Origin: Candidatus Latescibacterota bacterium
GTDB taxonomy: Bacteria; Latescibacterota; UBA2968; UBA8231
DNA: 64,000 bases
Assembly (NCBI GenBank): GCA_965204725.1
Contig: OZ242005.1
Location: 2,816,001-2,880,000, forward strand
Direction of reading: 5' to 3'
Both the position numbers and the translations under genes were made by a program. Positions 26,522 to 61,248 of the stretch are shown here, piece after piece. The notes below the pieces were generated by a model, which was not told the DNA's origin, did not search any database, and saw only the letters and a list, made by a program, of their open reading frames with translations. Position 1 is the first letter of the stretch; each line of letters begins with the position of its first letter.

Positions 26522-27451
26522 TTACTGGTACTGATGCTTAATCCGGCCCCAACTCTGCGCTTCGACCGAGGTCGGCTCGCCCCAATCAATGGTGTCGTCC
26601 ATGGGGGAGATGAGCAGGTCCTGCGAAGAGTGACAACAGTTCGTCGGGGTCGTCGCCCACATGCCGACGCGGTTGTCGGCATCGCCGGCACTGTCATCGA
26701 CGTCGCTGACGAAAATCGAAAAGCCGATTATCTCGCCCGCCGTCAGGTCGTGCTCAATGACCTGATCTTCGGTGATGTTCTCCTCGGTCGGCTTGGGATA
26801 CGAATCAATGGCGATGGTGCGGAACTCGTAGATATACGTGCTCTCGCCATACTCCTCGCCCTCAAAGCTATAGGTGCAGTAGTACCAACGGCTGCCGTTG
26901 GACAGCAGCGTCGGGTTTTCGATGTCGGCAGAAGAGACGGCAGCCGTTTGCAGGGCCGGGCCGAAATTGCCGTTGAGCGGCGGGAACGCGAATGAGTACT
27001 TGTGGTGCGTCACCACGTCTTCGGGCTTGGGCAAGTAGTCGTGGCGCGGATTGAACTCGATCTCAATGCTGTCGTCCCACCAGTAGGAGCCTAAGTCTTG
27101 GCGGGTAATGGTGTGTTTGTTGTCGAACACCTTCGTCGTCACGTAGAGTTCATTGCGCGAGTCGTTCCAGCCCAAGATGTGGCGGATCTGCATAGAAGCC
27201 GGATCCATGCCGCCGCGTGGCACGTCGTCGCCAGCAAAGCCATGCACGGAAAAGAGCCTCGAACTGGGAATGGCGTACACATCGAGCGGCACCGCCGCCC
27301 AATCGTCGTCAAATCCGTCGATGACCGGCACATGGGAATCGGGGAACTGCACGGCGAGTTCAAACTCGCCCGGGGGCTCGTGCGCCCCGGCGGCGAGGGC
27401 AAAGGCCAAAAGGGCCATTGCCGTCAGGCTACAGGTGAAAAGACGCTTCAT
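26522..27451 (-). CDS. Secreted DOMON/CBM9-like protein with C-terminal TSVEAQSWGRIK motif
   Basis: AAGGAGG RBS; signal peptide MKRLFTCSLTAMALLAFALAAGA; PVIDG..DDW, LGWN, DDSIEI, L..GEIIGF...V.D.D. Paralog of 48485-49420. Confidence 0.65.
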   Translation of the reverse strand: MKRLFTCSLTAMALLAFALAAGAHEPPGEFELAVQFPDSHVPVIDGFDDDWAAVPLDVYAIPSSRLFSVHGFAGDDVPRGGMDPASMQIRHILGWNDSRNELYVTTKVFDNKHTITRQDLGSYWWDDSIEIEFNPRHDYLPKPEDVVTHHKYSFAFPPLNGNFGPALQTAAVSSADIENPTLLSNGSRWYYCTYSFEGEEYGESTYIYEFRTIAIDSYPKPTEENITEDQVIEHDLTAGEIIGFSIFVSDVDDSAGDADNRVGMWATTPTNCCHSSQDLLISPMDDTIDWGEPTSVEAQSWGRIKHQYQ

Positions 27452-27493
27452 AGCTACCTCCTTGGGTAGGTGGACGATGAACGAGGGATTGCA

Positions 27494-27522
27494 AATGTAG
27501 TCAAACGACCCGCCAAATACAA
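27494..27522 (-). promoter_or_regulatory. Putative sigma70 promoter
   Basis: TTGTAT-17-TACATT on the minus strand, ~40 nt upstream of ATG 27451. Confidence 0.45.
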
Positions 27523-27562
27523 CTATTGCGACTGCCAGCACCCCCCGCTACGGCCGGGATGA

Positions 27563-30250
27563 CTACTGCAAGCCGGCGTATAGCGTGACAAAGGTCTCGG
27601 TCGTGGTTGCGGGCGCGGCCTCCGCAAACGCTTTGCGCTCTACCACAAAGCCGGCCAACGCCGCGATCCGGTAGCCCAAATAGGCCGACTCAGTCTCCAA
27701 CTGCAAGGCCCAACTCAGGGAGTCGAAATTTTCCGCCTCGCGGTTGAAGTCCTTGAACAGCGCGTACTCAACGCCGGCTTGAAGGCGCGTGGCTTGCAAT
27801 AGTTGCGTTTCCAAAAGTAGCGAGAACAGCTCTATCAGCGTCGTGCGATTGTCTTGGTCAAACAGCGACCGGTTCTGCTGACGCCACTCGCTCTTCCAAC
27901 GCGGCGATAGGGTCAGCCCGCGCCAAGTGTGGCGATAGCTGGCCTTGTTGATCAAGCCAAAGAAAAAGTCCGTCGCATCGCGCTGCCGCTGCGCGAAGAA
28001 GACCCCGTGCAGCTTGCTCATCACCAACAGCGCGTCGCTCGTCAGGCTGTGGCCAGCGAACAGCTGGTGGACCCAAGCATCGCGGGCTAGGAGCGGATCG
28101 TCGATGGGGACGAGCTGGCCGCCGCGCAGCGTGTTGTCGGGTTGCCACTGCAAAATTGGATCGGGAATGTCGTCTTGCACCAACTGGCTCATCTCGAAAA
28201 GCCGCACCCGCCCCACCCGCGGCCACGCGCGCTCGTAGCTCAACTGCCAGTACGTGCTGTGGTTTTTGCGATCCGCCGAAATTTGCTCCTCGCGCAAGGC
28301 CCCCACCTTGAGTTGCCAATACCGACTCAGGTCGATGCCCCCATAGACATTGAACCCTTGCTGATCGCGGCGGTAGGGGTAGTCCGGCTCGGTGTCGTTT
28401 TCGTATAGATCGACCCAGAAGTTGTGGTTCATATCCACGCCGAAGAGGAACTCCGGCCGATCGACCAAGAAGCGGAGGAAAGGCTCCTCGTAATCTGGAA
28501 CGGCATTGGCCTTGACCCGGTTGTCGTTTTGGTTGAAGTCGGGCACTAAGTCGTTGTTGAGGTCCCAGCCGGGAAAGACTAAGCGGTCGTTGACCAAAAA
28601 ATCCGCGCGGAATCCATCGGGAAAGCGATCTTGATCGTCGTTGTCTTCCACTAAGTCAAAGCGGTTGCCCTGCCGGGCGTAATCGAGGCCCGAGGCGGTG
28701 GTGACAAAAGACTGGGTGTTGTAGCGCGGGTCAATCGAATACACTTCTCCGAACAGCGACAGCCGCCCCAAGTGCTTGCTCAGGTTCGCCATCCACGCTG
28801 GCGCGCTTTCGCGCCCGCCAATGCCCGCCGAGGAAGTGTGCGTCTCCTCGGCGACGTTGGGATACTTGCGGAAGCTCCAGCTCAGGTCGTATTCGCCATA
28901 TAGGTCAAAGCCGAGCACATTTTCCACCTTGATCGTGGCGCCGGCGACGGTCGTAGCCGTCGGCAGCCCGTAGGCAAAGCGGACCGTGCGCAGATTGGAT
29001 AGGTCCTGCACATTCCCCTCGGCCTGCGCCGTCAGCAAGAAGACCGGATCTTCTACATCCGCGCCGAAGACGTCGCCCAAGCTGATGGAGCGCTCGCCCG
29101 TCCGACTAAACGAGCTCGATGGCCGACCGACTGTTACAAAGCCGCCGCCCTCTCCCAACTGCTGGTCCGAACTCATCCATATCTGGTAGTCGTTGGCCAA
29201 GACGAGGCGAAATTCCACTGCCGAGATCTCGGACTTATCGGCCGAGGCGCGGTTGACAAACGACGGGCTGTCAAAGTCGTAGAGCAGGCTGATTTGCCCG
29301 TCGCCATCGGCGGTGAGAAACCCCTGCCGCTCTAGGCCGCCGCTGATCACCGGACCAAAGCGAATGTCGCGGCCCGACTCCACCGTGCCGTCGCGGTAGG
29401 TGATAATCACGTCCGAGGCGTCTGGGAAGTACGCTGCGCCGCCGCGGCCGTCTCCGGGCGAGTCGTCCCGCAAGGCGATTGCGATCTGGGATACGGTCGC
29501 GTTTTGCTGCTTGTTCAGCCCGCCTTTATACAGCGTTTCTACGAGCTGATCCGACTCGCTGTTGGTCTGATGGGCGTTGACCGCGTGTAGGCCCAACTCC
29601 ACGAAATCCCCGAGCTGGGCCGCAAACCGCCCTCCCACGAGGGAGGTCGCGTCCGTAAAGCGACTCTCTTCCTCCTGCAAGCCGCGCGGCCCGGTAATCA
29701 GCGAGTGGAGAAAGGTCAGTTGGTACTTGTCGGTGGCGAGGTCCATCTGCAAGCCGTTTAGGCGCGGCTTGGAAAACGACAGCGGCGTCAAGGTGGTCCG
29801 CAGGTTGTTGCTCACCGTCAGTGCGTAGTGGTATTGGCCCTTGTGGTCGCCGGCGATGACCAGTTCGTTGAACCACTGCGCGAACCGCTCGGTCTTGAAC
29901 AGGGAGCTACCGGCCTCTTGGGGCCGCGTCTGCGCCGTATTAAAAATGAGCCAGCCCTGAGTCAGGTAATTCCCGTACAGATCGTAGAAGTAATCGCCCT
30001 CCAAGTCGATGTTCACGTAGCGCTGATACGGCAGCCGCGCGCGGTTGGTGTACTCCCACTGCCGCCATGGGTATTCGGCGAACATCACCTGCGGCACGTA
30101 CCAGCGCCGCGTGGCCGGGTCGAGGGCGTCGAGGTACACCTCCGGGCTTCGCGCTACTTCCCGTTGCCATGCCCAGGCCCAGTCGGCAAAAACGAGGCCG
30201 AGCACTGCGACGCCGAGGAAGGTCCAAGGCTGTTTTGTCACGCCGCTCAT
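27563..30250 (-). CDS. Large secreted/outer-membrane protein, family A copy 1 (predicted beta-barrel, Asp-rich repeats)
   Basis: Signal peptide; conserved RRWYVPQ...WRQWEYTN...LEGDYFYDLYG; DNDDQDRFPD, DLNNDLVPDFNQND, DMNHNFWVD; amphipathic strands ending TFVTLYAGLQ. Confidence 0.7.
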   Translation of the reverse strand: MSGVTKQPWTFLGVAVLGLVFADWAWAWQREVARSPEVYLDALDPATRRWYVPQVMFAEYPWRQWEYTNRARLPYQRYVNIDLEGDYFYDLYGNYLTQGWLIFNTAQTRPQEAGSSLFKTERFAQWFNELVIAGDHKGQYHYALTVSNNLRTTLTPLSFSKPRLNGLQMDLATDKYQLTFLHSLITGPRGLQEEESRFTDATSLVGGRFAAQLGDFVELGLHAVNAHQTNSESDQLVETLYKGGLNKQQNATVSQIAIALRDDSPGDGRGGAAYFPDASDVIITYRDGTVESGRDIRFGPVISGGLERQGFLTADGDGQISLLYDFDSPSFVNRASADKSEISAVEFRLVLANDYQIWMSSDQQLGEGGGFVTVGRPSSSFSRTGERSISLGDVFGADVEDPVFLLTAQAEGNVQDLSNLRTVRFAYGLPTATTVAGATIKVENVLGFDLYGEYDLSWSFRKYPNVAEETHTSSAGIGGRESAPAWMANLSKHLGRLSLFGEVYSIDPRYNTQSFVTTASGLDYARQGNRFDLVEDNDDQDRFPDGFRADFLVNDRLVFPGWDLNNDLVPDFNQNDNRVKANAVPDYEEPFLRFLVDRPEFLFGVDMNHNFWVDLYENDTEPDYPYRRDQQGFNVYGGIDLSRYWQLKVGALREEQISADRKNHSTYWQLSYERAWPRVGRVRLFEMSQLVQDDIPDPILQWQPDNTLRGGQLVPIDDPLLARDAWVHQLFAGHSLTSDALLVMSKLHGVFFAQRQRDATDFFFGLINKASYRHTWRGLTLSPRWKSEWRQQNRSLFDQDNRTTLIELFSLLLETQLLQATRLQAGVEYALFKDFNREAENFDSLSWALQLETESAYLGYRIAALAGFVVERKAFAEAAPATTTETFVTLYAGLQ

Positions 30251-30265
30251 TGTAGCTAAGTCCGT

Positions 30266-30958
30266 CTAAAATTGGTACGAGTAATACAGTGCTATGCCTC
30301 GCTCTTGGGCATAAGCTGCAACATCGGGCGATGAAATCATGTGCGTGACCAAAACGGCAAATACATCCTCGAATAGCGGCTCGAGACGAGTGAGCCGGCC
30401 TTGGATGAAATGGTCGATGTTCTTGGCGGACAACTGGCTCTTGCTTTCGCCAATTACGACCACCGCGCGCCCATCCCTGCGCCCTCGACCGAAGATGTTG
30501 ACCTCAACGGGATACCCTCTGTCGGTTGTGAGGTACGTGCGAATGAGCCGGTCCTCCACCTCAATCCCATGATCGGTCTTGAGGAGTGCCGGCAGAGCGC
30601 GATAGGCTTCGTTTTCGAGGATGTACCCTACGGTATGCGAGAGGCCGCCGAGTTGTTTGCGCGTTTCGTCGTGCGCTTCTGTCAGTTTTTTGAGTGCCTC
30701 TTCGGTCCCCGCTTGGGCGGCCGCCAGTCGGTCGAGCGTGGCTTCGACCCGGTCCATGCGGTTTTCCACGCCTTCCAACCGCTCCTCTGCCCGCGCTTGG
30801 GCGACGGCGAGGGCTTTGACCGCATCCTTGAGGTCCTCCATGTCAACGGAGGTGGCCAAGCCGACGTGGAGCTCACTCAACAGGCCGGTGAGGACGTCGG
30901 CCTGCGCTTGGGTAAACGCCCCGCCTAATCTGCGTTTGACGTCGTCTGTGTTTAACAT
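30266..30958 (-). CDS. Coiled-coil protein with C-terminal PD-(D/E)XK-like domain (DUF3782-like)
   Basis: Heptads LAVAQARAEERL / LAAAQAGTEEAL; LGGLSHTVGYILE; EVNIFG...IGESKSQL. Confidence 0.7.
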   Translation of the reverse strand: MLNTDDVKRRLGGAFTQAQADVLTGLLSELHVGLATSVDMEDLKDAVKALAVAQARAEERLEGVENRMDRVEATLDRLAAAQAGTEEALKKLTEAHDETRKQLGGLSHTVGYILENEAYRALPALLKTDHGIEVEDRLIRTYLTTDRGYPVEVNIFGRGRRDGRAVVVIGESKSQLSAKNIDHFIQGRLTRLEPLFEDVFAVLVTHMISSPDVAAYAQERGIALYYSYQF

Positions 30959-31035: not shown

Positions 31036-33075
31036 CTAGTACGCCACGCCTATCGCGCCGTTGGCTACTTCGCGGCCCTTGTCGGTGTCCCAATCGAGTT
31101 GATAGAGGTACAGGCCGGGCGGCACGAGTGCGCCCTCTGCGTCGAGCCCGTTCCAAGTTTGGGCAAAGCTGCCACTGCCGGCGTTCGCCGCGCTTTGGCG
31201 CACTAGGCGGCCGGATAGGTCGTAGATCCGCAAGCGGATCGGCCGCCGGCTTTCCAAATCGCGCAACTCATAAGCAATCGCGACGTGGTCGTTGACGCCG
31301 TCGCCGTTGGGCGTAAAGGTCGCGGGCGTGGCTTGGACGCTGCTGATGAGGCCGCCGCCCATGGGCGTGCGCACCGATACCACATCGCCGCCAAAGCGGA
31401 ACGTCGCGTTGCCCGGGGCGACCTGCTGCTTGAGCTCGGGTTCGGTGCTGTCGTACACCCAGCTTCTGAAGTCCGCGCCAAAGCGCAAGACCTTGGCGTC
31501 GAAGACGACCTCGATCCGCTTCTCGTTGTCGCGCGGCCCCACCAAGCGGTCGAAGCCGACGATCAGGCGGTCGTCTTGAATCTCGGGCGGGAAGCGGTCG
31601 CTGATCTCCGCGCCGTCAATGAGCACGGAATGCACCCGCTCGACCGGGATCTGGGTAAAAATTTCCAGCCGGTCAAAGCCCAAGTCGCGGGCGCGCAAGA
31701 CCGGGCGCACCACATAAGTAAAGGTCGTGGCCGCAAAGCTCTCCGTGGCAATGGGCCAGATCTCCCCAACCACCTCTTGGGCTACCGGGTCCTCGGAAAA
31801 CAGCAGGGACAGGTCGTCGATGCGCGGGGCCGCGTCGGCGCGGGCGAACAGGACGGCCTCTAGCTGGAAGTAGCGCGCCGGACTCGGCGAGAGGACGGGC
31901 GTACCGTCTTGCCACCGGTCGGCCGGCAGTTCGACCTGCCGCAGCCCCGCAGCGAACTCGTAGGGCGCCGACCAAAGGCTCCAATTTTCTAGGTCGTAGC
32001 CCAATTCCACGTCGTCCCACCGCCGGCGGCCGAGCTGGGTCAGGTATTCGTCGAGGGTCGATACTTCGAGGGTCCCGGTGGGGCCGATGGTGCGATAGAC
32101 GTTCGGCTGCGGCGTGTTGCCCGTGCGGGTGCGGAGCAAAAGCTGGGTTCCCGCGGGCACCTCGCCTTGCCAGCGAACCTTGCTCCACGCAACCTCGCGG
32201 CCAAAATCCAGAATCGGAGTGCGGTAAGTAGTCCGGGTCACAAAGCCCTCGCCATAGACTTCAAACTCGGCGATTTCCCAATCGCGCTCGGGGTCGAGCG
32301 GGCGAATGGCAATCCACTTGAGGTCGCGGGTGGGGAAGCGCAAATCCACCACCACGTCGAGGCTTTCGCGGTTGCGCGCCAAGATGTCAAAGGCCGGGTC
32401 ATTGGGTGCGCCCAAGGCCGCGTCGATAACCATGTACCAACGCTTGCCGCGCTGGCTGCGGTCGAAGTTGCTGTCCCAAAACGGCGCAGTGTGGTTGGCC
32501 ACGCCGATTTCGTACCAAGCCAAGTGGTTGTCCTCAAACCGAGGCCGGGGGAAGAAGCGGATGCGGTTGATGGGCAGCTCAGCCCCCAAGTGCATGACGT
32601 TGTTTTTGACCACGCCGGGGTTGTTGCGGCCGGCCAAGCGCGGCGGCTCGGGCACTCGCACCAGCATGGCGGTCGTCGGATCGCCGTCGATGAGAAACTG
32701 CAAGGGCTGGGAGTCGGTTACTAAGTGCGTACCGCCGTAGATACTGGCCGTGTAAAAGTGCCCTTGGCGTTCCTTGATTGACAGGGCCAAGTTCTCGCTC
32801 GGATCGATATACACCGGGCGCAGGCCGCCCGCGGCAAAGTCGATCAACGTATCGACGCCCGCGGTGTTGAAGCGCACGCTGACCTCTTCGGCTACCGCGC
32901 CAATGGTCACCTCCTCGACGATGCGGCCCTCGGCGTCGAGCAGCGCGTACGAAGCCGTCTGCTCGGCGATCAGTGCCTGCCAAGAATTGCCGTCCGCGCC
33001 GCCGAGGCGGAACTCACCGCGACCCCAAGCCCCGGTAGTTAGGACCGCTATTAGTAAGCCTAGCCGCTGGAACAT
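31036..33075 (-). CDS. Secreted protein with discoidin-like region and FlgD-Ig/CTD C-terminus (short type)
   Basis: Signal peptide; LIDGDPTT, IAEFEVYGEGF, W..WS.PY, SPSPARYFQ, GEIWP; FTPNGDGVND...IYDLSGRLVR...WNG...VPPGLY...GVAY-stop. Confidence 0.75.
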   Translation of the reverse strand: MFQRLGLLIAVLTTGAWGRGEFRLGGADGNSWQALIAEQTASYALLDAEGRIVEEVTIGAVAEEVSVRFNTAGVDTLIDFAAGGLRPVYIDPSENLALSIKERQGHFYTASIYGGTHLVTDSQPLQFLIDGDPTTAMLVRVPEPPRLAGRNNPGVVKNNVMHLGAELPINRIRFFPRPRFEDNHLAWYEIGVANHTAPFWDSNFDRSQRGKRWYMVIDAALGAPNDPAFDILARNRESLDVVVDLRFPTRDLKWIAIRPLDPERDWEIAEFEVYGEGFVTRTTYRTPILDFGREVAWSKVRWQGEVPAGTQLLLRTRTGNTPQPNVYRTIGPTGTLEVSTLDEYLTQLGRRRWDDVELGYDLENWSLWSAPYEFAAGLRQVELPADRWQDGTPVLSPSPARYFQLEAVLFARADAAPRIDDLSLLFSEDPVAQEVVGEIWPIATESFAATTFTYVVRPVLRARDLGFDRLEIFTQIPVERVHSVLIDGAEISDRFPPEIQDDRLIVGFDRLVGPRDNEKRIEVVFDAKVLRFGADFRSWVYDSTEPELKQQVAPGNATFRFGGDVVSVRTPMGGGLISSVQATPATFTPNGDGVNDHVAIAYELRDLESRRPIRLRIYDLSGRLVRQSAANAGSGSFAQTWNGLDAEGALVPPGLYLYQLDWDTDKGREVANGAIGVAY

Positions 33076-33088
33076 GATGGTCTCCTCC

Positions 33089-35137
33089 TTAGTACGCTAC
33101 GCATACGGGCCGCACCGTCTGCCCGCTGCGCGCGTCTCCGGCCACTTCGAGCCGCACCAAGTAGATGCCGGGGGCGACGCGCTGGCCCCGCTCGTCGGTG
33201 CCGTCCCAATGTACGGCGTCGTACACCCCGTTTTGTCCTTCGGCGTCGAAGAGGCGGCGCACCCGCCGGCCGCCTACATCCCACAGCTCAATCGCGATCC
33301 GCGCTTTGCCGATGACCGCCAGCACCTCAAAGCGCACGTCGAGGATGTCGTTCACTCCGTCCCCATTGGGCGTCAAGACGTTGCTGCCGAGGGCGAACCG
33401 GCCAATCAAGCTGCCTTCGTTCACCGCACGGCTCAGCACCGTCGTCCCCGATTCGGTCGGCACATCCCCTTCCGCCAAAAAGGCCGCGTCGCCCGGGGTA
33501 ATGCCCTGAAAGGCATCCTCTGCTAGCAGCAGGGCGCGGCCGCCAAAGCGGGTGCTAAAGGCCAGCACTCGGCTGACGAAGTGGATTTTCAGCACGGCGT
33601 CGTGCTGGTTGATGGCCGGGAAACGCACCGCAAAGCGCTGGTCGTCAATGGCGGTGATAGCGACCTCGCCTTCGGCTGTGACCCCATCGGTCACGGCAAA
33701 GGCGTGGTCGAGTACCGGTTGGCCGCTGGCGTCGATGATTTCGATTCGCTCGACGCGGCTGACGCGACTCGGAGTAAACACCTCAAAGCTGTTGAAGCCC
33801 TGCGCGTGATCGCTTTCCATCACCGCCCGCACTGCGTATGCAAAGGGCACGTCGGCGGCGGCCGGCACCTCGCGCGGGAAAATCTCGCCGATGAGGGCGT
33901 CGGCCAGCGGTGGCGAGGAAAATTCGAGGCCGATCTGCTCGATGATGTGGCTGGCTTCCAAGTGCTGGCTCTGAAATTCCACGCGAAATTGGAAGTAGCG
34001 GCTCGGGCCGGGCGAGAGAATCTGTGTGCCCGCAGCCAGATCCTCCAGCGAGTAAGGCGAGGTCCACGGACTCCAGTTTGCCAAGTCGTCGCGCACCGAG
34101 CCGCGCTCCCAATCGTCGCCCTGACGCCCGCGCTCGGGCAGCTTTAAGTACTCTCGGCGCAGCAACGGCTCGCCCGGGTCGCTCGCGGACGACGGGATCT
34201 CGGGGGCGTCTTGCAGGCCCACCTGCTTGCGGGTGTATGCCAAGGGACTGGGGTCGTGGCCGCTCCGGGTGCGCAACTGCATGTCGGCTAGGTCCGCCGC
34301 GCCTACTTGCTGCTGCAAGGTGCGGATGAGGCCCCAGTTGGCCGGGCTGCCCATGTCGATGATCGGCGAGATGTAGCGCGCTGTCGGGAAAAACCCCTCG
34401 CCAAAGACTTGGAGTTTTTCGATCTCAAAGGGAATGGCCGACGTGGCTCGCAGGCGGATGAAGCGAATGTAGCGCGGCGGGTTGATGGGCACTTGGGTGA
34501 TCGGGTCGCTGTTGTTGTTGAGCACGGTATAGGTTTCCCATATAGGGTTGCCCGAGCTGGTCAGCACCAAGCCGTCGTTGATCTCCACTTCAAAGTTTTT
34601 CAAAAAGTCGTTCTGAAAGGGGGTGCCGGGCGAGGAAAAGACCGTGTTGCGAGGAAAAAAGCGCAGCCGGTTGACCCCAAAGCGCGCGCCGAGGTCGAGA
34701 ATGAGTTGGGTCCCCGAGATGTCGTCCTCTTTGCGCTCGAATGCCTGCCCGGTCGGCTCGGCCGCGAGCATGTCCTCGAAAATCACCTGTAGCTGCAAGG
34801 CGGTCAGGTCAAAGACGGTCGGTGCGCGCAGCGAGCCGCCGCGCTCCAGTGCCTCGGTGGCCAAGTTCTGCTCGGCCCCCACTCGCCGCGGCAGGATGCT
34901 GCCCGGAAAATCCGCGCTGTCGAACTCGATTAAGTCGGCCGGCGCATGGCCGATTTCGGTGACGTTAGGGTCGAGAAAGGAGCGGTGCTCGGGCCGAATA
35001 GTCGAGATGCCCTCGGCCCCTTCGACGCGCCCGGTCCACGAGATTTGCCCGTCCTGCCCGATGAGCAAGACTTGTCGAGCCGCCAGCGGTTGCACCCAGC
35101 ACACCGTTAGGACTCCAATCAGTAGCGCGGCTTTCAT
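33089..35137 (-). CDS. Secreted protein with FlgD-Ig/CTD C-terminus (short type)
   Basis: Signal peptide; DLGARFGVNRLRFFP, QVFGEGF, SPGPSRYFQ, GEIFP, LTPNGDGVND...WDG...VAPGIY...CVAY-stop. Confidence 0.75.
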   Translation of the reverse strand: MKAALLIGVLTVCWVQPLAARQVLLIGQDGQISWTGRVEGAEGISTIRPEHRSFLDPNVTEIGHAPADLIEFDSADFPGSILPRRVGAEQNLATEALERGGSLRAPTVFDLTALQLQVIFEDMLAAEPTGQAFERKEDDISGTQLILDLGARFGVNRLRFFPRNTVFSSPGTPFQNDFLKNFEVEINDGLVLTSSGNPIWETYTVLNNNSDPITQVPINPPRYIRFIRLRATSAIPFEIEKLQVFGEGFFPTARYISPIIDMGSPANWGLIRTLQQQVGAADLADMQLRTRSGHDPSPLAYTRKQVGLQDAPEIPSSASDPGEPLLRREYLKLPERGRQGDDWERGSVRDDLANWSPWTSPYSLEDLAAGTQILSPGPSRYFQFRVEFQSQHLEASHIIEQIGLEFSSPPLADALIGEIFPREVPAAADVPFAYAVRAVMESDHAQGFNSFEVFTPSRVSRVERIEIIDASGQPVLDHAFAVTDGVTAEGEVAITAIDDQRFAVRFPAINQHDAVLKIHFVSRVLAFSTRFGGRALLLAEDAFQGITPGDAAFLAEGDVPTESGTTVLSRAVNEGSLIGRFALGSNVLTPNGDGVNDILDVRFEVLAVIGKARIAIELWDVGGRRVRRLFDAEGQNGVYDAVHWDGTDERGQRVAPGIYLVRLEVAGDARSGQTVRPVCVAY

Positions 35138-38843: not shown

Positions 38844-38895
38844 AACAACCTCCTTTAGTGCCCGTAGGATTGCAGAGGACTGCCCACGAAGCACT

Positions 38896-49420: not shown

Positions 49421-49508
49421 ACCCCTCGGAGCGGCTTCGCGGCCAAACGCGCCGTGGAGCCGCTCCACTTCATACCCAGCGTACCTTCCTCCGTTGCCAA
49501 GACGTACA

Positions 49509-50228: not shown

Positions 50229-50230
50229 TC

Positions 50231-54255: not shown

Positions 54256-54267
54256 CGAGAAAAGCCC

Positions 54268-56739
54268 ATGCCTAGACGCAATTTCACCCCCCCCCTACCC
54301 TCTCAACGCGAACCCCGTATCACTCCCCCCCCCGGGGGGAGTAGCCGCCCTCGGCGGCGGTGGGGGGCCATCTCGGTGCTACTCTTACTCGTCGTTCCCC
54401 CGCCCCTACCCGCTCAGGACCTAGTTTTTGCGGGAGCGGATTTTGCGGCGTGGAATCATCCGGCCGGGCTCGTCCAGATCGGCACCACCGGAATCACTGT
54501 CAAGCGTTTTGGCACGACGTTCAATGCGGTCGCCAATGCCAGCGAATTTTCATCCGTTACCATTGGCGACTACGGCCTCTTGCCGGTGCGCGCTCCCTCC
54601 AATCAGGCCCAAGCCAGACTCGTGGCCGACCAAGACCCCAACACCTATTGGCAGCCCGACTTAGGCGATCCGCTCCAGCAGTGGTGGCTAGAGGTCGATT
54701 TGAAGCGTGCAGTCGTCGCTCGCAAAATTCGCGTGATCTTTCCCCAAACCGAGGACGCCCGGCCCTTTGAATTCTTTTCGCTCCACGTCAGCCCGGGCAT
54801 TCAGGTCGCGGGTGCGCCGGGCAAGCAGGTCGCGTTTGAGCGCGTTGGTCGCCCGGTCAACAACAACGCCGAGCAGGTGGTAGAGTTCGATCTCAAAACC
54901 GCCAACAAGGCTCCTGCGAGCGAAGTGCCCAAAGGGCAGTTCTTGGCAAAGAGCGACAGCTTGGATTTTTCCATCCTCCGCTTTGTGCGCTTTGAAGCGG
55001 CCGGCCAAACCGCTGGCGCGGCCCTCGCCGAAATCGAGGTGGATGGCATTGGCTTCAACCTCTCGACCCGGGTGTTTACCGAGGAGCGCGCGGAAAAGGG
55101 CGAGGAGTCATGGGGCGGCCGGACGTGGACTTCAAGGGCCCGCGATTGCGATGGCTGCGGCAAGGCCAGCGGCGCGGAATTCCTCGTGGATGCGGACTTG
55201 GGCCGGCGGCTGTGGAGCATCCAAGCCTCTTCGGGCGATCGCGATTGGCGCGACGATGGCGTCTGGTCGGTGATCGACTTTGGCAGCGTGTTCCGCATCG
55301 ACCGGATAATTTTCGTGCCGCTCATCGGCGGCCGCAGCCCGTGGCTGTACGGCTACCAGCAGGGCGCGGTGGGTGGCTTTCCCATGTTCGACCTCCTGAC
55401 CTCCGACGGCAGCCCGAGCAATACGGCCGACCCGCAGGCCGAGGGGCCGTTTGAATACGAGCTGTTGTCCGAAGTGCGTACCAGCTACCCCTTCAACGAC
55501 TTCCAATTTCCCACCCGCGACACGCGCCTCATCCTCTGGCGCGTGATCGGCTTCTATGGCCGCGACGCCAATGCCTTGCAGCTTTTTGCCTTTCACCGCG
55601 CGGGCTATCCCAAGCGCGTCGAGTTGGAGTCCGACGACCTCGACTTGGGGGCGGCGCGCAGCATCCGGCGCGTTGAGTGGGACGCCGACCTGCCGGCGGG
55701 AACGCGCTTAGAAGTGCAGACCCAAACGGGCAATGGCTTTACCGAGGTTACACGCTACTTTCTCAAAAACGGCAGTGAAGTCACCAAGGAAGCCTACGAA
55801 GCGGCGCGCAAGCGCTATCGCGGCGACATTGTGCAAGAACAGGTGCGCGATGCGACTTGGAGCACATGGAGCCGGCCGCATCGCTTTTCCGGGCAGGGCT
55901 TTCAGTCGCCTTCGCCGCGGCGCTACCTGCGGACGCGCATTCGCCTGTACAGCGACGACCTAGACGTGTCGCCGGTGCTGCGCTCGCTACGGATTGTCGC
56001 CAACGATCCGGTCATTTTTGCCGGCTTGAGCGGCTCGGTGTGGCCGCGCGAAGCCGCCCTCGATACGCGGACCGAGTTTCGCTATACCATTAAGCCGCAG
56101 GCGTTCAACAGCCGCGACCCCGGGTTCGACCAAGTGTTGATCGCCCTGCCGCCGGGCAGCGCGGATGCTCAGTTGCTTGCGGTGCGCGTGGGCGGGCAGC
56201 CGGTGGAGGCGAGCGGCTCGTTGCGCGGCGATTCCCTGTGGGTGCAGCTACCGCCGCCGGTGGTGCGGCGCGACTCGGTTGACATTGCGTTTGCAACGCG
56301 GGTTTTTGCCAGCCCAACGGTCTTTGAGACCTTCGTCTTTAACTCTGCTCAAGAGGACAACGGTCAGGGGGTCGTGCCGGCCGAGTTGGGGGCCGATCAA
56401 GTGTTTGTGCCCGAGGTGGTGCAGGGCGTCGCGCTCATCCGCAACGTGCGCCACGCCGCGCTCTTCACGCCCAATGGCGACGGAATCAACGACCAATACG
56501 ATCTGAGCTTCACGGTCGTCAAGACCGACAAGCAGCCGCGCGTGCGCGTCTTTTCCCTCGCTGGCCGCCTCATCGCCGAGTTGGCAAACGCCACGCCGCG
56601 CGGTGCTCGTGCGAAGTATGCTTGGGACGGCCAGAGCAACGGCGAGGTCGTGCCGCCGGGCATCTACCTAGTGCAGGTCGAATTGCAGACCGATCCGAAA
56701 GCCGAGGTCGTTCAGCGGAGTGTGCGCATCGTATATTAG
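54268..56739 (+). CDS. Secreted protein with FlgD-Ig/CTD C-terminus (long type)
   Basis: DQDPNTYWQPD..DP..QWWLEVDL; WSTWS, SPSPRRY, VWP; FTPNGDGIND...WDG...VPPGIY...RIVY-stop. Start codon uncertain. Confidence 0.72.
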   Translation: MPRRNFTPPLPSQREPRITPPPGGSSRPRRRWGAISVLLLLVVPPPLPAQDLVFAGADFAAWNHPAGLVQIGTTGITVKRFGTTFNAVANASEFSSVTIGDYGLLPVRAPSNQAQARLVADQDPNTYWQPDLGDPLQQWWLEVDLKRAVVARKIRVIFPQTEDARPFEFFSLHVSPGIQVAGAPGKQVAFERVGRPVNNNAEQVVEFDLKTANKAPASEVPKGQFLAKSDSLDFSILRFVRFEAAGQTAGAALAEIEVDGIGFNLSTRVFTEERAEKGEESWGGRTWTSRARDCDGCGKASGAEFLVDADLGRRLWSIQASSGDRDWRDDGVWSVIDFGSVFRIDRIIFVPLIGGRSPWLYGYQQGAVGGFPMFDLLTSDGSPSNTADPQAEGPFEYELLSEVRTSYPFNDFQFPTRDTRLILWRVIGFYGRDANALQLFAFHRAGYPKRVELESDDLDLGAARSIRRVEWDADLPAGTRLEVQTQTGNGFTEVTRYFLKNGSEVTKEAYEAARKRYRGDIVQEQVRDATWSTWSRPHRFSGQGFQSPSPRRYLRTRIRLYSDDLDVSPVLRSLRIVANDPVIFAGLSGSVWPREAALDTRTEFRYTIKPQAFNSRDPGFDQVLIALPPGSADAQLLAVRVGGQPVEASGSLRGDSLWVQLPPPVVRRDSVDIAFATRVFASPTVFETFVFNSAQEDNGQGVVPAELGADQVFVPEVVQGVALIRNVRHAALFTPNGDGINDQYDLSFTVVKTDKQPRVRVFSLAGRLIAELANATPRGARAKYAWDGQSNGEVVPPGIYLVQVELQTDPKAEVVQRSVRIVY

Positions 56740-56864
56740 AAGCGGTCTGGATTCCGCCCCGTGTCGGGGCACGGGGTGACGTTCTTTCGCGGGAATGACG
56801 CCTCTAGGGAAAAAAACGGTGCCGATCAACATTCCATGCTTTCGAGTCATTTAGGACTGCTATA
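56739..56864. mobile_element. Chimeric MITE/REP element
   Basis: Family-B-like start GAAGCGGTCT; REP interrupted by a CCCCGTGTCGGGGCACGGGG hairpin; then a family-A arm ending TTAGGACTGCTATA, the reverse complement of 3003-3070. Confidence 0.75.
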
Positions 56865-56865
56865 T

Positions 56866-56910
56866 CAGGCCATAACCGAACATCGCAACAGGTCATAACC
56901 AAACATCGCA
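56866..56910 (+). repeat. Tandem 22-bp direct repeat
   Basis: CAGGCCATAACCGAACATCGCA / CAGGTCATAACCAAACATCGCA, period 23, ending 2 nt before ATG 56913. Confidence 0.8.
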
Positions 56911-56912
56911 CT

Positions 56913-57119
56913 ATGAAAATCAACTACTTTGAAGATACGGACACCGCACTTATCGAATTCACAGAAAACCGCGTCGCCGAGACCCGCAAGCTGTGCGAGA
57001 ACATCTACATAGACCTCGATAAGCAAGGGAACCTCGTCGCCATGAAAGTTGAACGCGCCGAGCAGAGCGCCAACATTCTAGAGTTCACCTTCGAGCGTCA
57101 AGCAAAAGCGACCGATTAA
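56913..57119 (+). CDS. DUF2283 domain protein (putative antitoxin, orphan)
   Basis: MKINYFEDTDTALIEF...ENIYIDLD..GNLV pattern; 68 aa. Confidence 0.8.
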   Translation: MKINYFEDTDTALIEFTENRVAETRKLCENIYIDLDKQGNLVAMKVERAEQSANILEFTFERQAKATD

Positions 57120-57146
57120 CCACACCAACCCTGTGGGAGGGAGGAC

Positions 57147-59780
57147 GTGAGACGTCTAACGATACGATTGCTTTATTGCGGTTTGCTCCTCGCCACGCCG
57201 CTGCCATCCGCGGCTTGGCGCGCCACCGGATTTGACAACCCCTATTACACTTCAGCCACCGAAGTCGCGCCCTCAACCCTCGTTCCTTCGGTCCGCAAGT
57301 GGTATCAGCCGCAGCGCCTGTACGAACTCTACGACTGGCGGCAAGACCAGTACTCCAACTACGCGCGCAACCCCTACCAACGCTACAACGACGTCTTCTT
57401 GGAGGGGTCGCCCTTTTACGACATTTACGGCTCGTATATCAGCCAAGGTTGGCAGGTGTACAACTGGACTGAAAACTATCCCACGGCCAGTGGCAGCAGC
57501 ATCTTCAAAAGCCCGCGCTTTAGCTCGTGGTTCAGCAACGTCCTCATCTCCTCCAGCCACTCTGGGCAGTTCCACTCCTCCCTGATGGTGGGCGACGGCA
57601 TCCGCACAACCCTGACGCCGCTCACCTTTTCCAAGCCGCGCTTCGACGGCGTGCAGTGGGACATGATGTCGGACAAATACGCCCTGACCCTGCTGACCTC
57701 GCGCATCAACAACGCGGGCGTCGTCGCGGGCGTCGCGGGCGAAACGGGTGTGCGGTTCAGCACGTTCACCAACTTGTGGGCTGCGAAAGGCCAAGTCAGC
57801 ATCGGCGACTTTTCCGATATTGGCCTAACATTTGTCAATGCGGCCCATCTGAATTCCAACATTCCCTTTGGCGACAATTCGCTCAAAGGCCAACTCAGCG
57901 GACCGATGAACAACGACTTCGTGCGCTCGATCATCGTGCGGATTTCCGACGACTCGCCCGAAGACGGCGAAGGCGGTGCCCTGCTGTCGCGCTGGCGCGT
58001 TTTCGCCAATGGCGTGGAGCACACCGACGACATCGCGCCCGTGGTTGAAGGAGGCTTTCGCCGCCGCGGCGTGATTGAAGCGAGCGGCACCGATGTAATA
58101 ACCCTCACGTTCAACATCGAAGACTTCGCGCCCACCATCGACGACAAAATCGACGACTTCCGCGAGATTAAGCACGTGGAGATCGGCCTAGTACTGGCCA
58201 ACGACTACAAAGTAGAGGTCGCTTCCAACAAACAGACCAACCAACTCGGCACCCCGGTGTTCCTGACCGTGCTGCGCGCCCCGGGCAACGTCAAAGACGG
58301 CGCCAACCAAGCCTTTCACACCTTTCGCTACGGCCTGCCTACGGGCAACCGGCTGCTCGGCTTTGACCTGTCGATCAACGACGTTGCCGGTTTTGACCTA
58401 AAGGGAGAATACGTGCGGAACTTCCAGTACCGCCGCTTCCCCAACGAAAACTTCATCCGCGATCAAGCCCTAGCTACCAACACGGCCGAAGCCTTTTACC
58501 TAACAGCGCAGAAGCGGCATTATCCATGGACGATCTTTGCCGAAGCCTTTAGCATGGACGCTGAGTACTCGACCCAAGCCTTTATCCCGAACTCCGAGGG
58601 CGAGGTGTACTACGGCAACGAACAGCAAAGCGCGTACGAGTTCGTCGATGACAACGACGATCAAGACGAATTGCCCGACTGGACCCGGCGCTACCACGGC
58701 CCGCGCGTCAACACCCGCCAAGGGGTGGGGCTGTTGACCGACAGCGCGGTCTTTCCCGGAATCGACGAAAACAACGACGATCTCTCGGATTTCAACCGCA
58801 ACTTCAACCGCTTACCCGACTACGCCGAGCCTTTTCTGCGCTTTGAGGTGGATCCCCCCGATTTTCTCTTTGGCATGGACATGAACAACAACGGGGTCAT
58901 CGACCGCTTTGAAGACGACGCCGAAGCAGACTATCCCTACAAACGCGGGCACCGGGGATACAACACTTATCTAGGCGTTGAAATCGCGCCGGATGTAAAC
59001 CTCATGGTCGGTCGGCTCGACGAGCGCCTGCTGAAAACCGCCCGCGAAAACGCGACTACGTACCTGCTCTTGACTGCAAGCGAAAAGTTCCCGCGCTACA
59101 ACCTGCAAGTACGGCTGATTGTCAATCCGCGCAAGGTTGCAGACGACATTCGCGACGACGTCTTTTTGTGGGTCGATACGCCCGGCACATTCGGGGAAGC
59201 GCGCTTTATGCGCGACCCGCTCGGGGCGCGCGATGCGTTTGTCAATACGACATATTTAGACGTGCGCTACGACCGCTATATCTCGTTTACCACCAAGGTC
59301 AAGTACGATCAATACACCCAATTAGGGTCGGTTGCTGAAGAGTTGAACAACCAGCGCTTTCTCGGGGTGATCAACAAGGCCCAGTACCCGTTCCACCTGC
59401 GATCTTGGGATTTGACCCTGAACTGGAAACAGCTATACAGCAATCGAGTGCCGGCCGACAAGGACGCGCTGCAAACGTCTGACCTAACGGAGATTTTCTC
59501 GCTGCTGGCCGGCCGCGAGATCAACCGCAACATGAGCTTTACGGCCGGCGTTGAATACGAGATCGCCAACAATCTGGGCGAGCAGCCCGAGGGGTTGCTA
59601 GAAGACGGCACTACGCTGGTGCTGGCCGGCCAAATAGCCAACCAATCGGCCTATCAGGGGTATGCGCTGACGACCAACGTCGGGCTGCGCTGGACCCGCG
59701 AAGACCTCGACTCCGCTCCTTCGTCGGCCAAGCTGTTTACCTTTATCAGCGTCTTCGCCGGGCTGGGCAAGGACCTGTAA
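57147..59780 (+). CDS. Large secreted/outer-membrane protein, family A copy 3
   Basis: GGAGG RBS; signal peptide; RKWYQPQ...YARNPY.RY...LEG..FYD.YG; DDSPED; DDNDDQDELPD; DMNNNGVID; ends TFISVFAGLGKDL. Confidence 0.7.
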   Translation: MRRLTIRLLYCGLLLATPLPSAAWRATGFDNPYYTSATEVAPSTLVPSVRKWYQPQRLYELYDWRQDQYSNYARNPYQRYNDVFLEGSPFYDIYGSYISQGWQVYNWTENYPTASGSSIFKSPRFSSWFSNVLISSSHSGQFHSSLMVGDGIRTTLTPLTFSKPRFDGVQWDMMSDKYALTLLTSRINNAGVVAGVAGETGVRFSTFTNLWAAKGQVSIGDFSDIGLTFVNAAHLNSNIPFGDNSLKGQLSGPMNNDFVRSIIVRISDDSPEDGEGGALLSRWRVFANGVEHTDDIAPVVEGGFRRRGVIEASGTDVITLTFNIEDFAPTIDDKIDDFREIKHVEIGLVLANDYKVEVASNKQTNQLGTPVFLTVLRAPGNVKDGANQAFHTFRYGLPTGNRLLGFDLSINDVAGFDLKGEYVRNFQYRRFPNENFIRDQALATNTAEAFYLTAQKRHYPWTIFAEAFSMDAEYSTQAFIPNSEGEVYYGNEQQSAYEFVDDNDDQDELPDWTRRYHGPRVNTRQGVGLLTDSAVFPGIDENNDDLSDFNRNFNRLPDYAEPFLRFEVDPPDFLFGMDMNNNGVIDRFEDDAEADYPYKRGHRGYNTYLGVEIAPDVNLMVGRLDERLLKTARENATTYLLLTASEKFPRYNLQVRLIVNPRKVADDIRDDVFLWVDTPGTFGEARFMRDPLGARDAFVNTTYLDVRYDRYISFTTKVKYDQYTQLGSVAEELNNQRFLGVINKAQYPFHLRSWDLTLNWKQLYSNRVPADKDALQTSDLTEIFSLLAGREINRNMSFTAGVEYEIANNLGEQPEGLLEDGTTLVLAGQIANQSAYQGYALTTNVGLRWTREDLDSAPSSAKLFTFISVFAGLGKDL

Positions 59781-59790
59781 TGGATGTTTA

Positions 59791-59892
59791 GAAGCGGTCT
59801 GCAAACTCTGATGGTCGTCTCTTGGGTCTAACCGATACCGGCTGGATTCCCGCGAAAGCGGGAATGACTCCTCATAAGCAAAAAGACCGTGC
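59791..59892. mobile_element. Partial chimeric MITE/REP element
   Basis: TTA followed by GAAGCGGTCTGCAAA; REP CTGGATTCCCGCGAAAGCGGGAATGAC at 59842-59868; CCTCATAAGCAAAAAGAC matches the reverse complement of 3049-3067. Lies between convergent genes. Confidence 0.72.
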
Positions 59893-61248
59893 TCAAGGCC
59901 GGGGCGTTGCGGCCGGAAAAGCAACTTCGGCGAGTGCTGCGGTATTTATTTCAATATCCGCGCTGTACTGCTCGCGGAGCCGCGCAATGAAGGCGTCCAT
60001 GGCCGCGGTTGCCGCCCGCTGCCTCAGCAGGGTTCCGATGCTGTTATAGACCAAGGATAGATCGGTCACTTTGCCGTCACTGCGAGTAAACAGCTCGATG
60101 TTGGCGTCGTAGTACGCGCGAATGTCCTCTTCAGTGATGGCCTGCTGGCTCACCCCCTTTTGGCCCTCGGCGCGATAGAGCCAATCGACGATGAGCGCGT
60201 CGCGCTTGCGCTCCACCTGCTCGCGCACCTCGCGGTCGCGGTCGTATTGCAGCTTGCGGCCCTCGGCCATCATAATCTGCACCCCGGCCAAGTTCTCGGC
60301 CGTCTTGTGGCGAGCGGCGCTGTCGAGCCGGCTGCGGCTCGTCGCTAGGGCGGCCCAGTACGCGGCCGTGGTCAGTTGGCCGCCGCGCCAACTAAAGAGC
60401 ACTCGCTCCTCGCCCTCGGGATCGGGCGCGGCCAAGGCTTTTAGGCCCTCGGGGTGGGCTGCTAGCTGGTATTCGCGGCGCAGGCGATGGACGTATTGTT
60501 CCATGTCGTCGGCCCGCTTTTGCACCCGCGCTTTTTCTGTTAGCCATGCGCGCTGGGCCGCAAAATCCAAGTGCCGCCGGTCGTCGAGCCGGAAGACGTG
60601 AAAGCCCATTTGGGTCTTCACCGGCTGCGGATAGAGTTGCCCCGCGGCCATGGTCCGCAACGGTTCCTTCAGCTCGGGCAGCATGTTGCCCATCTTGAAC
60701 CACCCCAACCGGCCGGCCGGGCCAAAGCGCCGCTGGATGGTCGCGGTCGAATAGATGGGCACCAGCGACTCAAACGGAGTGCCCTCTTGCAGGGCCGCCA
60801 GCACCTCTTGGGCCTCTTCCTCGGTCGCGCAGACAATGTGCCGGCTCAAGACCTCGACATCGTATTCGCGCTCTTGGGCAAAAGCCCGCAATTCGTCCTC
60901 GGTTGATGTGTAATCGCCGCGCAGGGCCTCTTCCTCGTACAGCTTGTTCACCACGGCCTTTTGCTCGGTGCGCTCGACTTCGCGGGCAATGCTCGGCTCG
61001 CGGTCGAGGCCGCGACGCAGCCCTTCGCGCACCAACAGCTCGCGGGCGATCACGCCGTTGAGCAGCTCCAGCTTGGCGTCCGCATTCATTTCCTCGAGGT
61101 GCTTGTAGCCCGTTTGCATCAGTTTTTGCGCTCGCTCCCGAAAGTCTTCCGGCGATAGGGTCGTTTCGCCAATGCGGGCGACATACCTAGGCTCAGGTTC
61201 GGCGCCAGAAGCTACGAGTGCGAGCAAGGCGATTGTTCTCAGTTTCAT
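59893..61248 (-). CDS. PpiC/parvulin-type peptidyl-prolyl isomerase (SurA/PrsA-like)
   Basis: VARIG, RHIVC..EEEA, F..L...YS, GRLGWF, PVKTQMGFHVF. Confidence 0.87.
   Translation of the reverse strand: MKLRTIALLALVASGAEPEPRYVARIGETTLSPEDFRERAQKLMQTGYKHLEEMNADAKLELLNGVIARELLVREGLRRGLDREPSIAREVERTEQKAVVNKLYEEEALRGDYTSTEDELRAFAQEREYDVEVLSRHIVCATEEEAQEVLAALQEGTPFESLVPIYSTATIQRRFGPAGRLGWFKMGNMLPELKEPLRTMAAGQLYPQPVKTQMGFHVFRLDDRRHLDFAAQRAWLTEKARVQKRADDMEQYVHRLRREYQLAAHPEGLKALAAPDPEGEERVLFSWRGGQLTTAAYWAALATSRSRLDSAARHKTAENLAGVQIMMAEGRKLQYDRDREVREQVERKRDALIVDWLYRAEGQKGVSQQAITEEDIRAYYDANIELFTRSDGKVTDLSLVYNSIGTLLRQRAATAAMDAFIARLREQYSADIEINTAALAEVAFPAATPRP

Follow-up and report, generated by a model that had tools for sequence, protein, structure and literature searches.

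The DNA analysed here is a 64,000-nucleotide stretch (the window) of contig OZ242005.1 (positions 2,816,001 to 2,880,000), from a sponge-associated Latescibacterota genome of 5.43 Mb that is 94% complete. Between positions 26522 and 61248, the window carries two divergent arms of cell-envelope genes, each organized around genes of a protein family that we call family A and genes for proteins whose C-terminal domain (CTD) is conserved. We report that the arms are two of many such cassettes in this genome and propose, at what we judge to be about even chances, that family A is the cognate outer-membrane partner, comparable in role to PorP/SprF, of lectin-like proteins exported via a type IX secretion system (T9SS), with the cassettes encoding diversified surface capture complexes.

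Gene content of the two arms

We mapped the open reading frames (ORFs) of the window, scanned them against Pfam and NCBIfam and assessed paralogy by all-against-all blastp; the resulting map reproduces the gene list of the initial annotation. The left arm is transcribed on the minus strand, from 43813 down to 26522. Its first gene (42053-43813) encodes a 586-aa PpiC/SurA-like protein (Rotamase_2, 9.5e-24; Rotamase; SurA_N_3) with a lipobox-like LLAGC recognized by eye, followed by a long CTD protein of 1032 aa (38896-41994; F5_F8_type_C, 5.9e-10; FlgD_ig; tail TPNGDGINE). Next come a family-A ORF of 928 aa (A928, 36180-38966; 1547 bits to the family profile), whose true start is probably downstream, and a 348-aa lipoprotein with tetratricopeptide repeats (TPRs) (35134-36180; TPR_19, TPR_14 and TPR_16; lipobox GLNAC by eye). 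Two short CTD proteins of 682 aa (33089-35137) and 679 aa (31036-33075; FlgD_ig, 28.8 bits) are then separated by a 230-aa ORF (30266-30958) from a second family-A gene of 895 aa (A895, 27563-30250). The arm ends with a member of what we call the Wx family, after its WxxIK motif (26522-27541, or 26522-27451 from the likely start), which combines a signal peptide with a CBM9-like domain and ends in the tag TSVE..SWGRIK.

The right arm lies on the plus strand and opens with a 311-aa Wx protein (48485-49420) whose C-terminal tag is ...TSIEESTWAQIK. It continues with a small lipoprotein of ~239 aa from its likely start (49329/49509-50228; lipobox LASGC by eye, no Pfam match) and three CTD genes, which are numbered up3, up2 and up1 by their position relative to the barrel gene: a short protein of 669 aa (50231-52240; F5_F8_type_C, 6.2e-9; FlgD_ig, 33.2 bits), a short one of 694 aa (52171-54255; FlgD_ig as its only Pfam match, 25.8 bits) and a long one of 823 aa that adjoins the barrel (54268-56739). 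The family-A gene itself encodes 877 aa (A877, 57147-59780; 1069 bits to the family profile) and faces a convergent gene on the minus strand for a second PpiC-type isomerase, of 451 aa (59893-61248; Rotamase_2, Rotamase and Rotamase_3). A 407-bp gap (56739-57147) precedes A877. The region's strongest terminator-like hairpin falls inside it (56755-56778; stem of 10 bp with 7 GC pairs), and from this sequence the right-arm barrel may be transcribed or attenuated separately from its CTD genes. A scan for promoters and terminators did no better than shuffles, with 7 promoter-like sites vs 4.1 and 18 terminator-like sites vs 20.0.

The two arms had been described as carrying the same parts list, and this is borne out by paralogy of the family-A, CTD and PpiC proteins. 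A895 and A928 are 56% identical over 890 aa, and A877 is 35-36% identical to both (E 1e-155 to 1e-168). The six CTD proteins share 24-35% mutual identity (E 1e-15 to 1e-61), with the 694-aa protein at 29-31% to the other short ones, and the PpiC proteins share 25% (E 7e-17). The Wx pair does not fit this pattern, since blastp gives no match between them at 1e-3; the right-arm Wx protein scores 18.3 bits against a leave-one-out Wx profile, a weak relation to its left-arm counterpart, and both carry the common C-terminal tag and a CBM9-like pattern. As for the left arm, the genes listed in the initial annotation all stand, but that list omitted the 230-aa ORF.

Family A, a predicted outer-membrane beta-barrel

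Family A comprises proteins of ~900 aa. An AlphaFold2 (AF2) model of A895, built on the alignment of the 26 family-A sequences behind our profile A1, is a large beta-barrel of ~26 strands by count (predicted local distance difference test, pLDDT, 63; predicted template modelling score, pTM, 0.60), with a confident beta-sandwich insert at ~236-362, after the sixth strand by count. An acidic loop (535-627) and the N-terminal 165 residues are both strongly conserved and both unmodelled. Searches with the model in Foldseek and VIA-align retrieved generic barrels only: SlpA, MtrB, LptD, FimD and BamA/TamA. The top Foldseek match is SlpA (8ae1_A, E 1.2e-9, TM 0.25), which is absent from the VIA-align table, and the SlpA_C domain (PF21620) matches 6 of 18 divergent family-A relatives at 16.7-19.8 bits, below the cut-off of 35, and none of the window proteins. 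We treat the likeness to SlpA as no more than a lead, since family-A profiles do not retrieve SlpA from the PDB sequences: profile A1 has no match there at E<=1, and a broader profile, A4, gives chance-level matches only (E 0.021-0.36).

The three window proteins have no Pfam or NCBIfam match; this includes Plug, TonB_dep_Rec and DUF5916. The genome encodes 20 receptors with a Plug domain and has two TonB_C matches, none of them at a family-A gene. In a database clustered at 90% identity we found 647 relatives, of which those with a named source are all called "hypothetical protein" and come from Latescibacteria or Gemmatimonadota, with no Pfam domain on relatives among the matches listed. At 50% identity, relatives fall into 990 clusters (E<=1e-3), 331 of them at E<=1e-30. 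By its predicted fold, family A is an outer-membrane beta-barrel of unassigned family.

CTD proteins and their tails

The model of the 682-aa CTD protein (pLDDT 91.4) is a chain of beta-sandwich domains. An N-terminal domain is followed by a CBM32/discoidin domain at ~88-250 (residues 90-247 against 4a42_B: Z 14.3, 124 residues aligned at rmsd 2.2), and then by another jelly roll, a domain of Ig-like fold and a CTD resembling those of T9SS type-B cargo, in which residues 574-682 match the PorU CTD (6za2_B) with Z 11.7 over 100 residues. Structure searches with this model found no catalytic fold, and the CTD proteins are, as modelled, lectin-like, non-catalytic chains of beta-sandwich domains.

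Type-B tails had been claimed for these proteins, and both the motif and the fold agree: a PNGDGxND-type motif is present in all six window CTD proteins, and the modelled domain is PorU-CTD-like. The curated models are borderline. CHU_C (PF13585, cut-off 27 bits) is passed by three of the six (39.4 bits for the 679-aa protein, 34.1 for the 823-aa protein and 27.7 for a third), is below the cut-off in two (24.5 for the 1032-aa protein and 24.6) and is absent in one. All six stay below the cut-off of 35 bits for TIGR04131, the 679-aa protein at 27.2 and the 823-aa protein best at 34.4.

Within the genome, no other protein family has this type of tail. P[ND]GDGxN[DE] occurs in the last 120 aa of 76 ORFs, all 76 of which belong to the cassette family of CTD proteins, with tails that end in VAY, VVY or LAY; NPFN tails occur in 71 ORFs, one of them of the cassette family. 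Seventy proteins match the tail by hidden Markov model (HMM) and fall outside the body family. Their tails are of the type-A-like NPFN kind with basic C-terminal residues, and 3 of the 70 lie within 10 kb of a family-A gene. Tandem arrays of ~720-aa paralogs with type-A-like NPFN tails ending in KTTKLP are found at G000:C1:2170938-2193734 and 998128-1004735 of the same genome. They represent another large expansion of T9SS-type cargo, one without linkage to family A.

A repertoire of cassettes in one genome

HMMs built from the window proteins were run on all ORFs of the genome. Profile A1 yields 43 match pieces there, and 36 full-length family-A genes (>300 bits to the family profile) are distributed over 26 loci. 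The arms had been called a duplicated module; they are indeed paralogous, but with this many copies the duplication is not private to the window. The zone within 10 kb of family-A genes covers 12.1% of the genome, which is the baseline for enrichment, and it contains 78 of the 107 genes with a CTD body, 23 of the 28 Wx genes, 10 of the 12 small lipoprotein genes, 26 of the 35 PpiC genes and 16 of the 23 TPR genes. Cassette cores total ~338 kb, or ~6% of the 5.4-Mb genome (662,040 bp in 27 regions, minus 6-kb flanks on each side).

Three cassette types can be distinguished by gene order. Type I, the right arm, reads Wx, lipoprotein, CTD, CTD, CTD, A, (PpiC); type II, the left arm, reads PpiC, long CTD, A, TPR, CTD, CTD, A, Wx; and in type III two A genes in tandem come after three CTD genes. 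Directly upstream of family A there is at least one CTD gene in 27 of the 36 cases, at least two in 13 and at least three in 10. The fixed stoichiometry that the initial annotation read from the window, a barrel with three subunits, two short and one long, is thus not general, as CTD counts vary and cassette types differ.

In a tree of all 107 CTD proteins, clades are specific to position relative to the barrel gene: the right-arm proteins of 669 and 694 aa sit in the up3 and up2 clades, the 823-aa protein in an up1 clade of 770-823-aa proteins and the left-arm 1032-aa protein in a clade of 1020-1111-aa proteins directly upstream of family A. These clades imply that cassettes were copied whole, with each position retained.

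One paralogous cassette of the left-arm type has a restriction-modification pair (N6_N4_Mtase and RE_TdeIII) inserted between its two short CTD genes (L078:11605-13328, equivalent to G000:C1:417852-419575), and other methylase and transposase genes also lie beside cassettes, which may be tolerated insertion sites.

Conservation across related genomes

We examined 74 loci, kept from 469 relatives in species-representative genomes. The set is skewed to left-arm-like barrels, with several loci per genome and 10-kb flanks. A CTD gene stands directly before family A in 69 of the 74 loci, in agreement with the conservation of neighborhood expected for a true module, and the CTD family is present in 71. 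The order A-TPR-CTD is found in 50 loci, and in 28 a family-A gene immediately precedes Wx; the complete left-arm order of eight genes recurs in 8, many loci being cut by the 10-kb flanks. Related genomes also hold dozens of cassette copies, and gene order is retained across many genomes in which family A is 50-57% identical.

In 81 genomes sampled evenly from the phylum, which give a pattern and not a statistic because related genomes are not independent, family A is found in 44 and the CTD family in 40. Both are present in 39, neither in 36, family A only in 5 and the CTD family only in one; two taxonomic families lack both (f2, 0/24; f3, 0/6). The cassette families are tightly co-localized in the window's genome and co-occur across the phylum, in line with the module proposed in the initial annotation. 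DNA near-identical to window positions 48400-58399 was found in sponge and marine metagenome runs from eight studies, with no RNA run among them.

These data bear on the view that the cassettes encode no common complex and are lineage-expanded envelope families clustered by repeated segmental duplication. Whole-cassette duplication would explain the position-specific clades, and gene number and order differ between cassette types. Against this, gene order is kept at the divergence just given, across the phylum the families share their gains and losses and the type-B-like tail is exclusive to the very family that adjoins family A. We consider mere clustering very improbable.

Type IX secretion and a proposed cognate partner for the CTD proteins

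The presence of T9SS parts in the genome, a check that follows from the tails, gave a mixed result. SprA (612 bits over one frame) and PorU (623 bits) are present, and a PorV-like gene adjoins PorU, scoring 150 bits where the cut-off is 250. No GldL or GldM was detected: TIGR03513, TIGR03517 and PF12081 have no match in the genome, with controls also silent for the first two and with PorK and PorN not searched for. The silence of the controls leaves room for divergent GldL and GldM homologs, and the phylum may energize its T9SS with divergent or different parts. SprA was found in 76 of the 81 phylum genomes, including families without cassettes, which indicates that the T9SS is ancestral in the phylum and the cassettes an add-on. 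The co-encoded PorP/SprF partner that had been anticipated for type-B tails was not detected: PF11751 has no match on any cassette protein or in a six-frame search of the 94% complete genome, control genomes being silent as well.

In the Bacteroidota, type-B CTD proteins bind PorP-like barrels (PMC9143113) and have genetic ties to the cognate PorP/SprF shuttles on which their secretion and localization depend (PMC12618676). The PorP-PorE-PG1035 complex includes PorE. PorE carries a TPR domain, and its place in that complex would parallel the order A-TPR-CTD. Here, type-B-like tails are confined to one family, that family is syntenic and co-inherited with family A and no PorP/SprF was detected, which makes family A as the functional counterpart of PorP/SprF the most economical reading.

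On this proposal, each cassette would encode a cell-surface complex around a large family-A barrel in the outer membrane. One to three co-encoded CTD proteins, non-catalytic lectin-like chains of CBM32, jelly-roll and Ig-like domains, would pass the inner membrane via Sec and, by means of their type-B-like CTD, the outer membrane via the T9SS, and would then be retained at the surface by the cognate family-A barrel. The PpiC protein, the TPR lipoprotein, the small lipoprotein and the CBM9-like Wx protein would act as periplasmic chaperone and accessory subunits, and the 26 diverged cassettes would form a repertoire of surface specificities for glycans or glycoconjugates. We infer T9SS export, the physical association of CTD proteins with family A and glycan binding from the parts, folds, synteny and co-occurrence described above; coupling of the cassettes to uptake is plausible.

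Several points weigh against this proposal. Family A is, judged by sequence, not homologous to PorP/SprF, which are about one third its size. Its predicted ~26-strand barrel is far larger than an anchor needs, which hints at a channel function. The cassette tails fall short of the NCBI type-B model, with at most 34.4 bits to TIGR04131 and CHU_C passed by half of the window proteins. The motor components GldL and GldM went undetected, within the limits stated for those models and for genome completeness. Five of the 81 genomes have family A with no CTD-family match at the thresholds used, and whole-cassette duplication alone would also yield the position-specific clades.

Some of the same evidence could instead speak for export without the T9SS, with family A as translocator of an usher or two-partner-like kind, the PpiC protein as its chaperone and the CTD sandwich as a targeting or plug domain. 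Most cassettes come with a SurA/PrsA-like gene of their own (26 of the 35 PpiC genes, as counted above), and GldL, GldM and PorP/SprF were not detected. FimD and PapC are among the structural matches to the family-A model, and its beta-sandwich insert comes after the sixth strand, topologically where ushers have their plug. However, the usher matches (Z 9.8-11.1) belong to a large set of generic matches and are no better than those of unrelated barrels, with BamA/TamA-type barrels at Z 14, and Pfam detects no Usher, PapD or POTRA domain among the window proteins. The tail fold matches T9SS CTDs specifically (the PorU CTD), SprA and PorU are encoded in the genome and SprA is phylum-wide, even in cassette-free families. 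We regard such an export unit as distinctly unlikely, and both it and mere clustering as less likely than a T9SS partner role for family A or the uptake role discussed below.

Accessory genes and the Wx tag

The Wx family is defined by a signal peptide, a CBM9-like pattern and a tag that the alignment shows to be invariant at the extreme C-terminus. CBM9_1 (PF06452) matches 5 of 19 Wx members weakly (best E 0.0011), and the Wx profile has one match among PDB sequences, at E 0.14. Written as [ST][VI][EQDA]x(2-4)[ST]W[GAS]x[IVLM]K, the tag is found in 34 of the genome's 24,143 ORFs, always in the final 24 residues. In the window it is encoded at 26522-26560 and 49380-49420. Of the ORFs that bear it, 24 are Wx genes and 10 encode other proteins of 216-450 aa, mostly with a hydrophobic N-terminus, 3 of the 10 being near family A. 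The tag looks like an undescribed sorting or docking signal.

The TPR lipoprotein gene that follows the first barrel of the left arm is present in the window in a short variant: its product measures 348 aa, with 340-355 aa in the nearest relatives as opposed to ~647 aa in most orthologous loci. The small lipoprotein of the right arm falls into lineage-specific lipoprotein clusters of Gemmatimonadota and Latescibacterota (0.97-0.98 in the atlas) without named relatives. Neither lipoprotein matches a SusD family in Pfam. The 230-aa ORF of the left arm (30266-30958) is single-copy in the genome, has no Pfam match and appears by eye to be a coiled coil in its N-terminal part. Only the three nearest loci (L001, L002 and L020) have a homolog at this site, and elsewhere the gap between the CTD gene and family A is 7-9 bp; it is an insertion within the left arm and not a cassette family.

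Neighboring genes and the question of uptake

Two genes lie between the arms. One encodes a family-5 solute-binding protein (SBP_bac_5, 1.4e-48; 43963-45699, plus strand), which we considered as a possible part of the module and rejected as a chance neighbor, one of the seven copies in the genome lying within 10 kb of family A. The other encodes a polytopic membrane protein with DUF6785 (3.2e-119) and DUF6784 (5.2e-29) domains (46338-48380, minus strand). DUF6785 proteins are loosely tied to the cassettes, with 11 of 33 genes within 10 kb of family A, and are possibly OPT-like importers: the nearest named atlas clusters are 'peptide transporter' and OPT (0.77-0.79), a lead only. Another DUF6785+DUF6784 gene sits a short way to the left of the left arm (21180-23177, plus strand), and genes for M17, M19 and M32 peptidases are found in 3153-11929, with sugar-acid-type enzymes also encoded in the left part of the window; DUF6785 and peptidase genes are weakly consistent with a peptide or glycopeptide diet.

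Beyond the second PpiC gene, the minus strand carries a loosely associated gene for a CRTAC1-like protein (61265-62917; FG-GAP_3, 8.1e-50; UnbV_ASPIC, 1.3e-18), a type of which 17 of the 44 copies in the genome are within 10 kb of family A, and a TPR gene (from 62920). Further left in the window, a low-GC island (6001-9262; GC 0.509 vs ~0.62) encodes an ankyrin-repeat protein (6065-7723) and a fusion of a DNA methylase and an HNH nuclease (7736-9262). Ankyrin-repeat proteins are typical of sponge symbionts.

We surveyed the flanks of the 27 cassette regions with Pfam (143 ORFs without another assignment, 150 aa or longer and no more than 6 kb away; E cut-offs 1e-5 and 1e-8). Families recurring there include ABC permeases and solute-binding proteins, GFO_IDH_MocA, MR_MLE, xylose-isomerase-like TIM barrels, PhyH and peptidases; FGE-sulfatase-like, GDSL lipase-like and TPR/PMT_2 proteins also recur, and some restriction-modification genes were seen. 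None of the 143 ORFs matches a glycoside hydrolase, polysaccharide lyase or sulfatase family.

The cassettes may also be compared with the Sus-type polysaccharide utilization loci (PULs). The cassettes could be loci for TonB-independent capture and uptake, in which CBM32 and CBM9-like proteins would catch glycans, glycopeptides or oligomers, family A would be the channel to the periplasm and nearby OPT-like DUF6785 permeases or ABC transporters would import the catch; this is compatible with anchoring of CTD proteins on family A. The copy number is PUL-like, with 36 barrels in 26 loci exceeding the 20 Plug-domain receptors, and the barrel is very large, with the giant porin-like SlpA as its top Foldseek match (TM 0.25) and sub-threshold SlpA_C matches in a third of the divergent relatives searched. 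DUF6785 genes are enriched near family A, at 11 of 33 vs 12.1% expected, the flanks carry the transporters, binding proteins and catabolic families just listed and the model of the 682-aa CTD protein is also similar to a SusE-like protein (7m1a, Z 10.9).

On the other side, the permease link is partial, 22 of the 33 DUF6785 genes lying farther than 10 kb from family A, and the OPT-like assignment is no firmer than its best atlas value of 0.79. The flanking enzyme families may simply be common genome-wide, no regulator lies consistently within the cassettes and, at pLDDT 63, confidence in the barrel model is too low to call the pore open or plugged. The earlier suggestion of a Sus analogue also lacks its defining parts: Plug and TonB-receptor domains are missing from family A, no match to a SusD family was obtained and the flanks returned no carbohydrate-active enzymes (CAZymes) or sulfatases. 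Barrel size, PUL-like copy number and the partial permease link nevertheless keep an uptake-channel role for family A, in addition or instead, in play, and we hold it as a tentative alternative, on balance rather doubtful.

Its boldest form joins this idea to the proposed T9SS partner role. The cassettes would then be a TonB-independent capture-and-import machine, an equivalent of Bacteroidota PULs in the Latescibacterota and their relatives, with a giant barrel serving as both shuttle or anchor and channel, CBM32 lectins delivered by the T9SS, a CBM9-like subunit docking via the TSVE..SWGxIK tag and ~26 specificities spread over ~6% of the chromosome. We think this combination unlikely.

Discussion

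No named system of this composition was found in Pfam, NCBIfam, PDB sequences or the literature, as the initial annotation had expected. Searches of the literature found no paper on Latescibacter with type IX secretion or on DUF6785, and those on Latescibacter with outer membrane and polysaccharide, sponge and secretion system or polysaccharide utilization loci did not retrieve the module in titles or abstracts, supplements not being covered. One paper from the Latescibacter literature invokes non-specific porins (PMC4454575).

The closest parallel is with T9SS type-B cargo and PorP/SprF, as in SprB-SprF and PG1035-PorP-PorE. Shared features are a cargo CTD that is a beta-sandwich with a PNGDGxND-type motif, a cargo gene beside a barrel gene, many cargo-barrel pairs per genome, a TPR partner that is periplasmic or a lipoprotein and SprA and PorU in the genome. 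In contrast to PorP/SprF, the cassette barrel belongs to a different family, of ~900 aa and ~26 predicted strands without PF11751, and is accompanied by one to three cargo genes. The cargo is one paralogous CBM32 family instead of diverse adhesins, GldL and GldM are undetected, TIGR04131 scores end just below the cut-off and the host phylum is Latescibacterota/Gemmatimonadota-like and not Bacteroidota.

With Sus-type PULs, the cassettes share their presence as dozens of diverged loci, a large barrel accompanied by binding proteins that are non-catalytic and consist of several beta-sandwich domains, in one cassette type a TPR-type lipoprotein gene that immediately follows the barrel gene, and inner-membrane transporters and catabolic enzymes nearby. 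They differ from PULs in lacking a Plug/TonB-dependent receptor domain, SusD and CAZymes or sulfatases within 6 kb, in binding proteins that have T9SS-type tails and not lipid anchors and in the absence of consistent hybrid two-component, SusR or ECF regulators. SlpA of Deinococcus-Thermus resembles family A as a very large barrel, as its best Foldseek match and through the weak SlpA_C scores in divergent relatives; unlike SlpA, family A has no SLH domain or coiled-coil stalk, and the scores below the Pfam cut-off, the TM of 0.25 and the PDB profile search that misses SlpA set the two apart. A CBM9-like domain fused to a DUF5916 outer-membrane barrel is a known arrangement, but in the cassettes the CBM9-like protein is encoded by a separate gene and has its own C-terminal tag.

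By the features tested, the cassette families are not members of the PorP/SprF, SusC/D or usher families. Of the overall interpretation given in the initial annotation, the tight co-localization, the type-B-like tails and the presence of SprA and PorU hold, while the fixed stoichiometry is not general and the PorP/SprF partner and the Sus parts were not found. The description that we would put forward, and would expect to prove right about as often as wrong, is that the cassettes are T9SS type-B cargo with a dedicated partner barrel, new in their non-homologous giant barrel, their PUL-like multiplicity and their host phylum.

The central barrel family of these cassettes has remained unannotated in Pfam, NCBIfam and PDB despite the ~6% share that they take of the genome, and our results supply a rule by which thousands of metagenomic genes labelled "hypothetical" can be annotated. 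Should family A act as the partner of type-B-like cargo, the principle of a cargo-specific T9SS shuttle would extend beyond the Bacteroidota, with a non-homologous barrel filling the role of PorP/SprF. If the barrel also conducts substrates, the cassettes would represent a new route of nutrient acquisition in an uncultured, widespread lineage.

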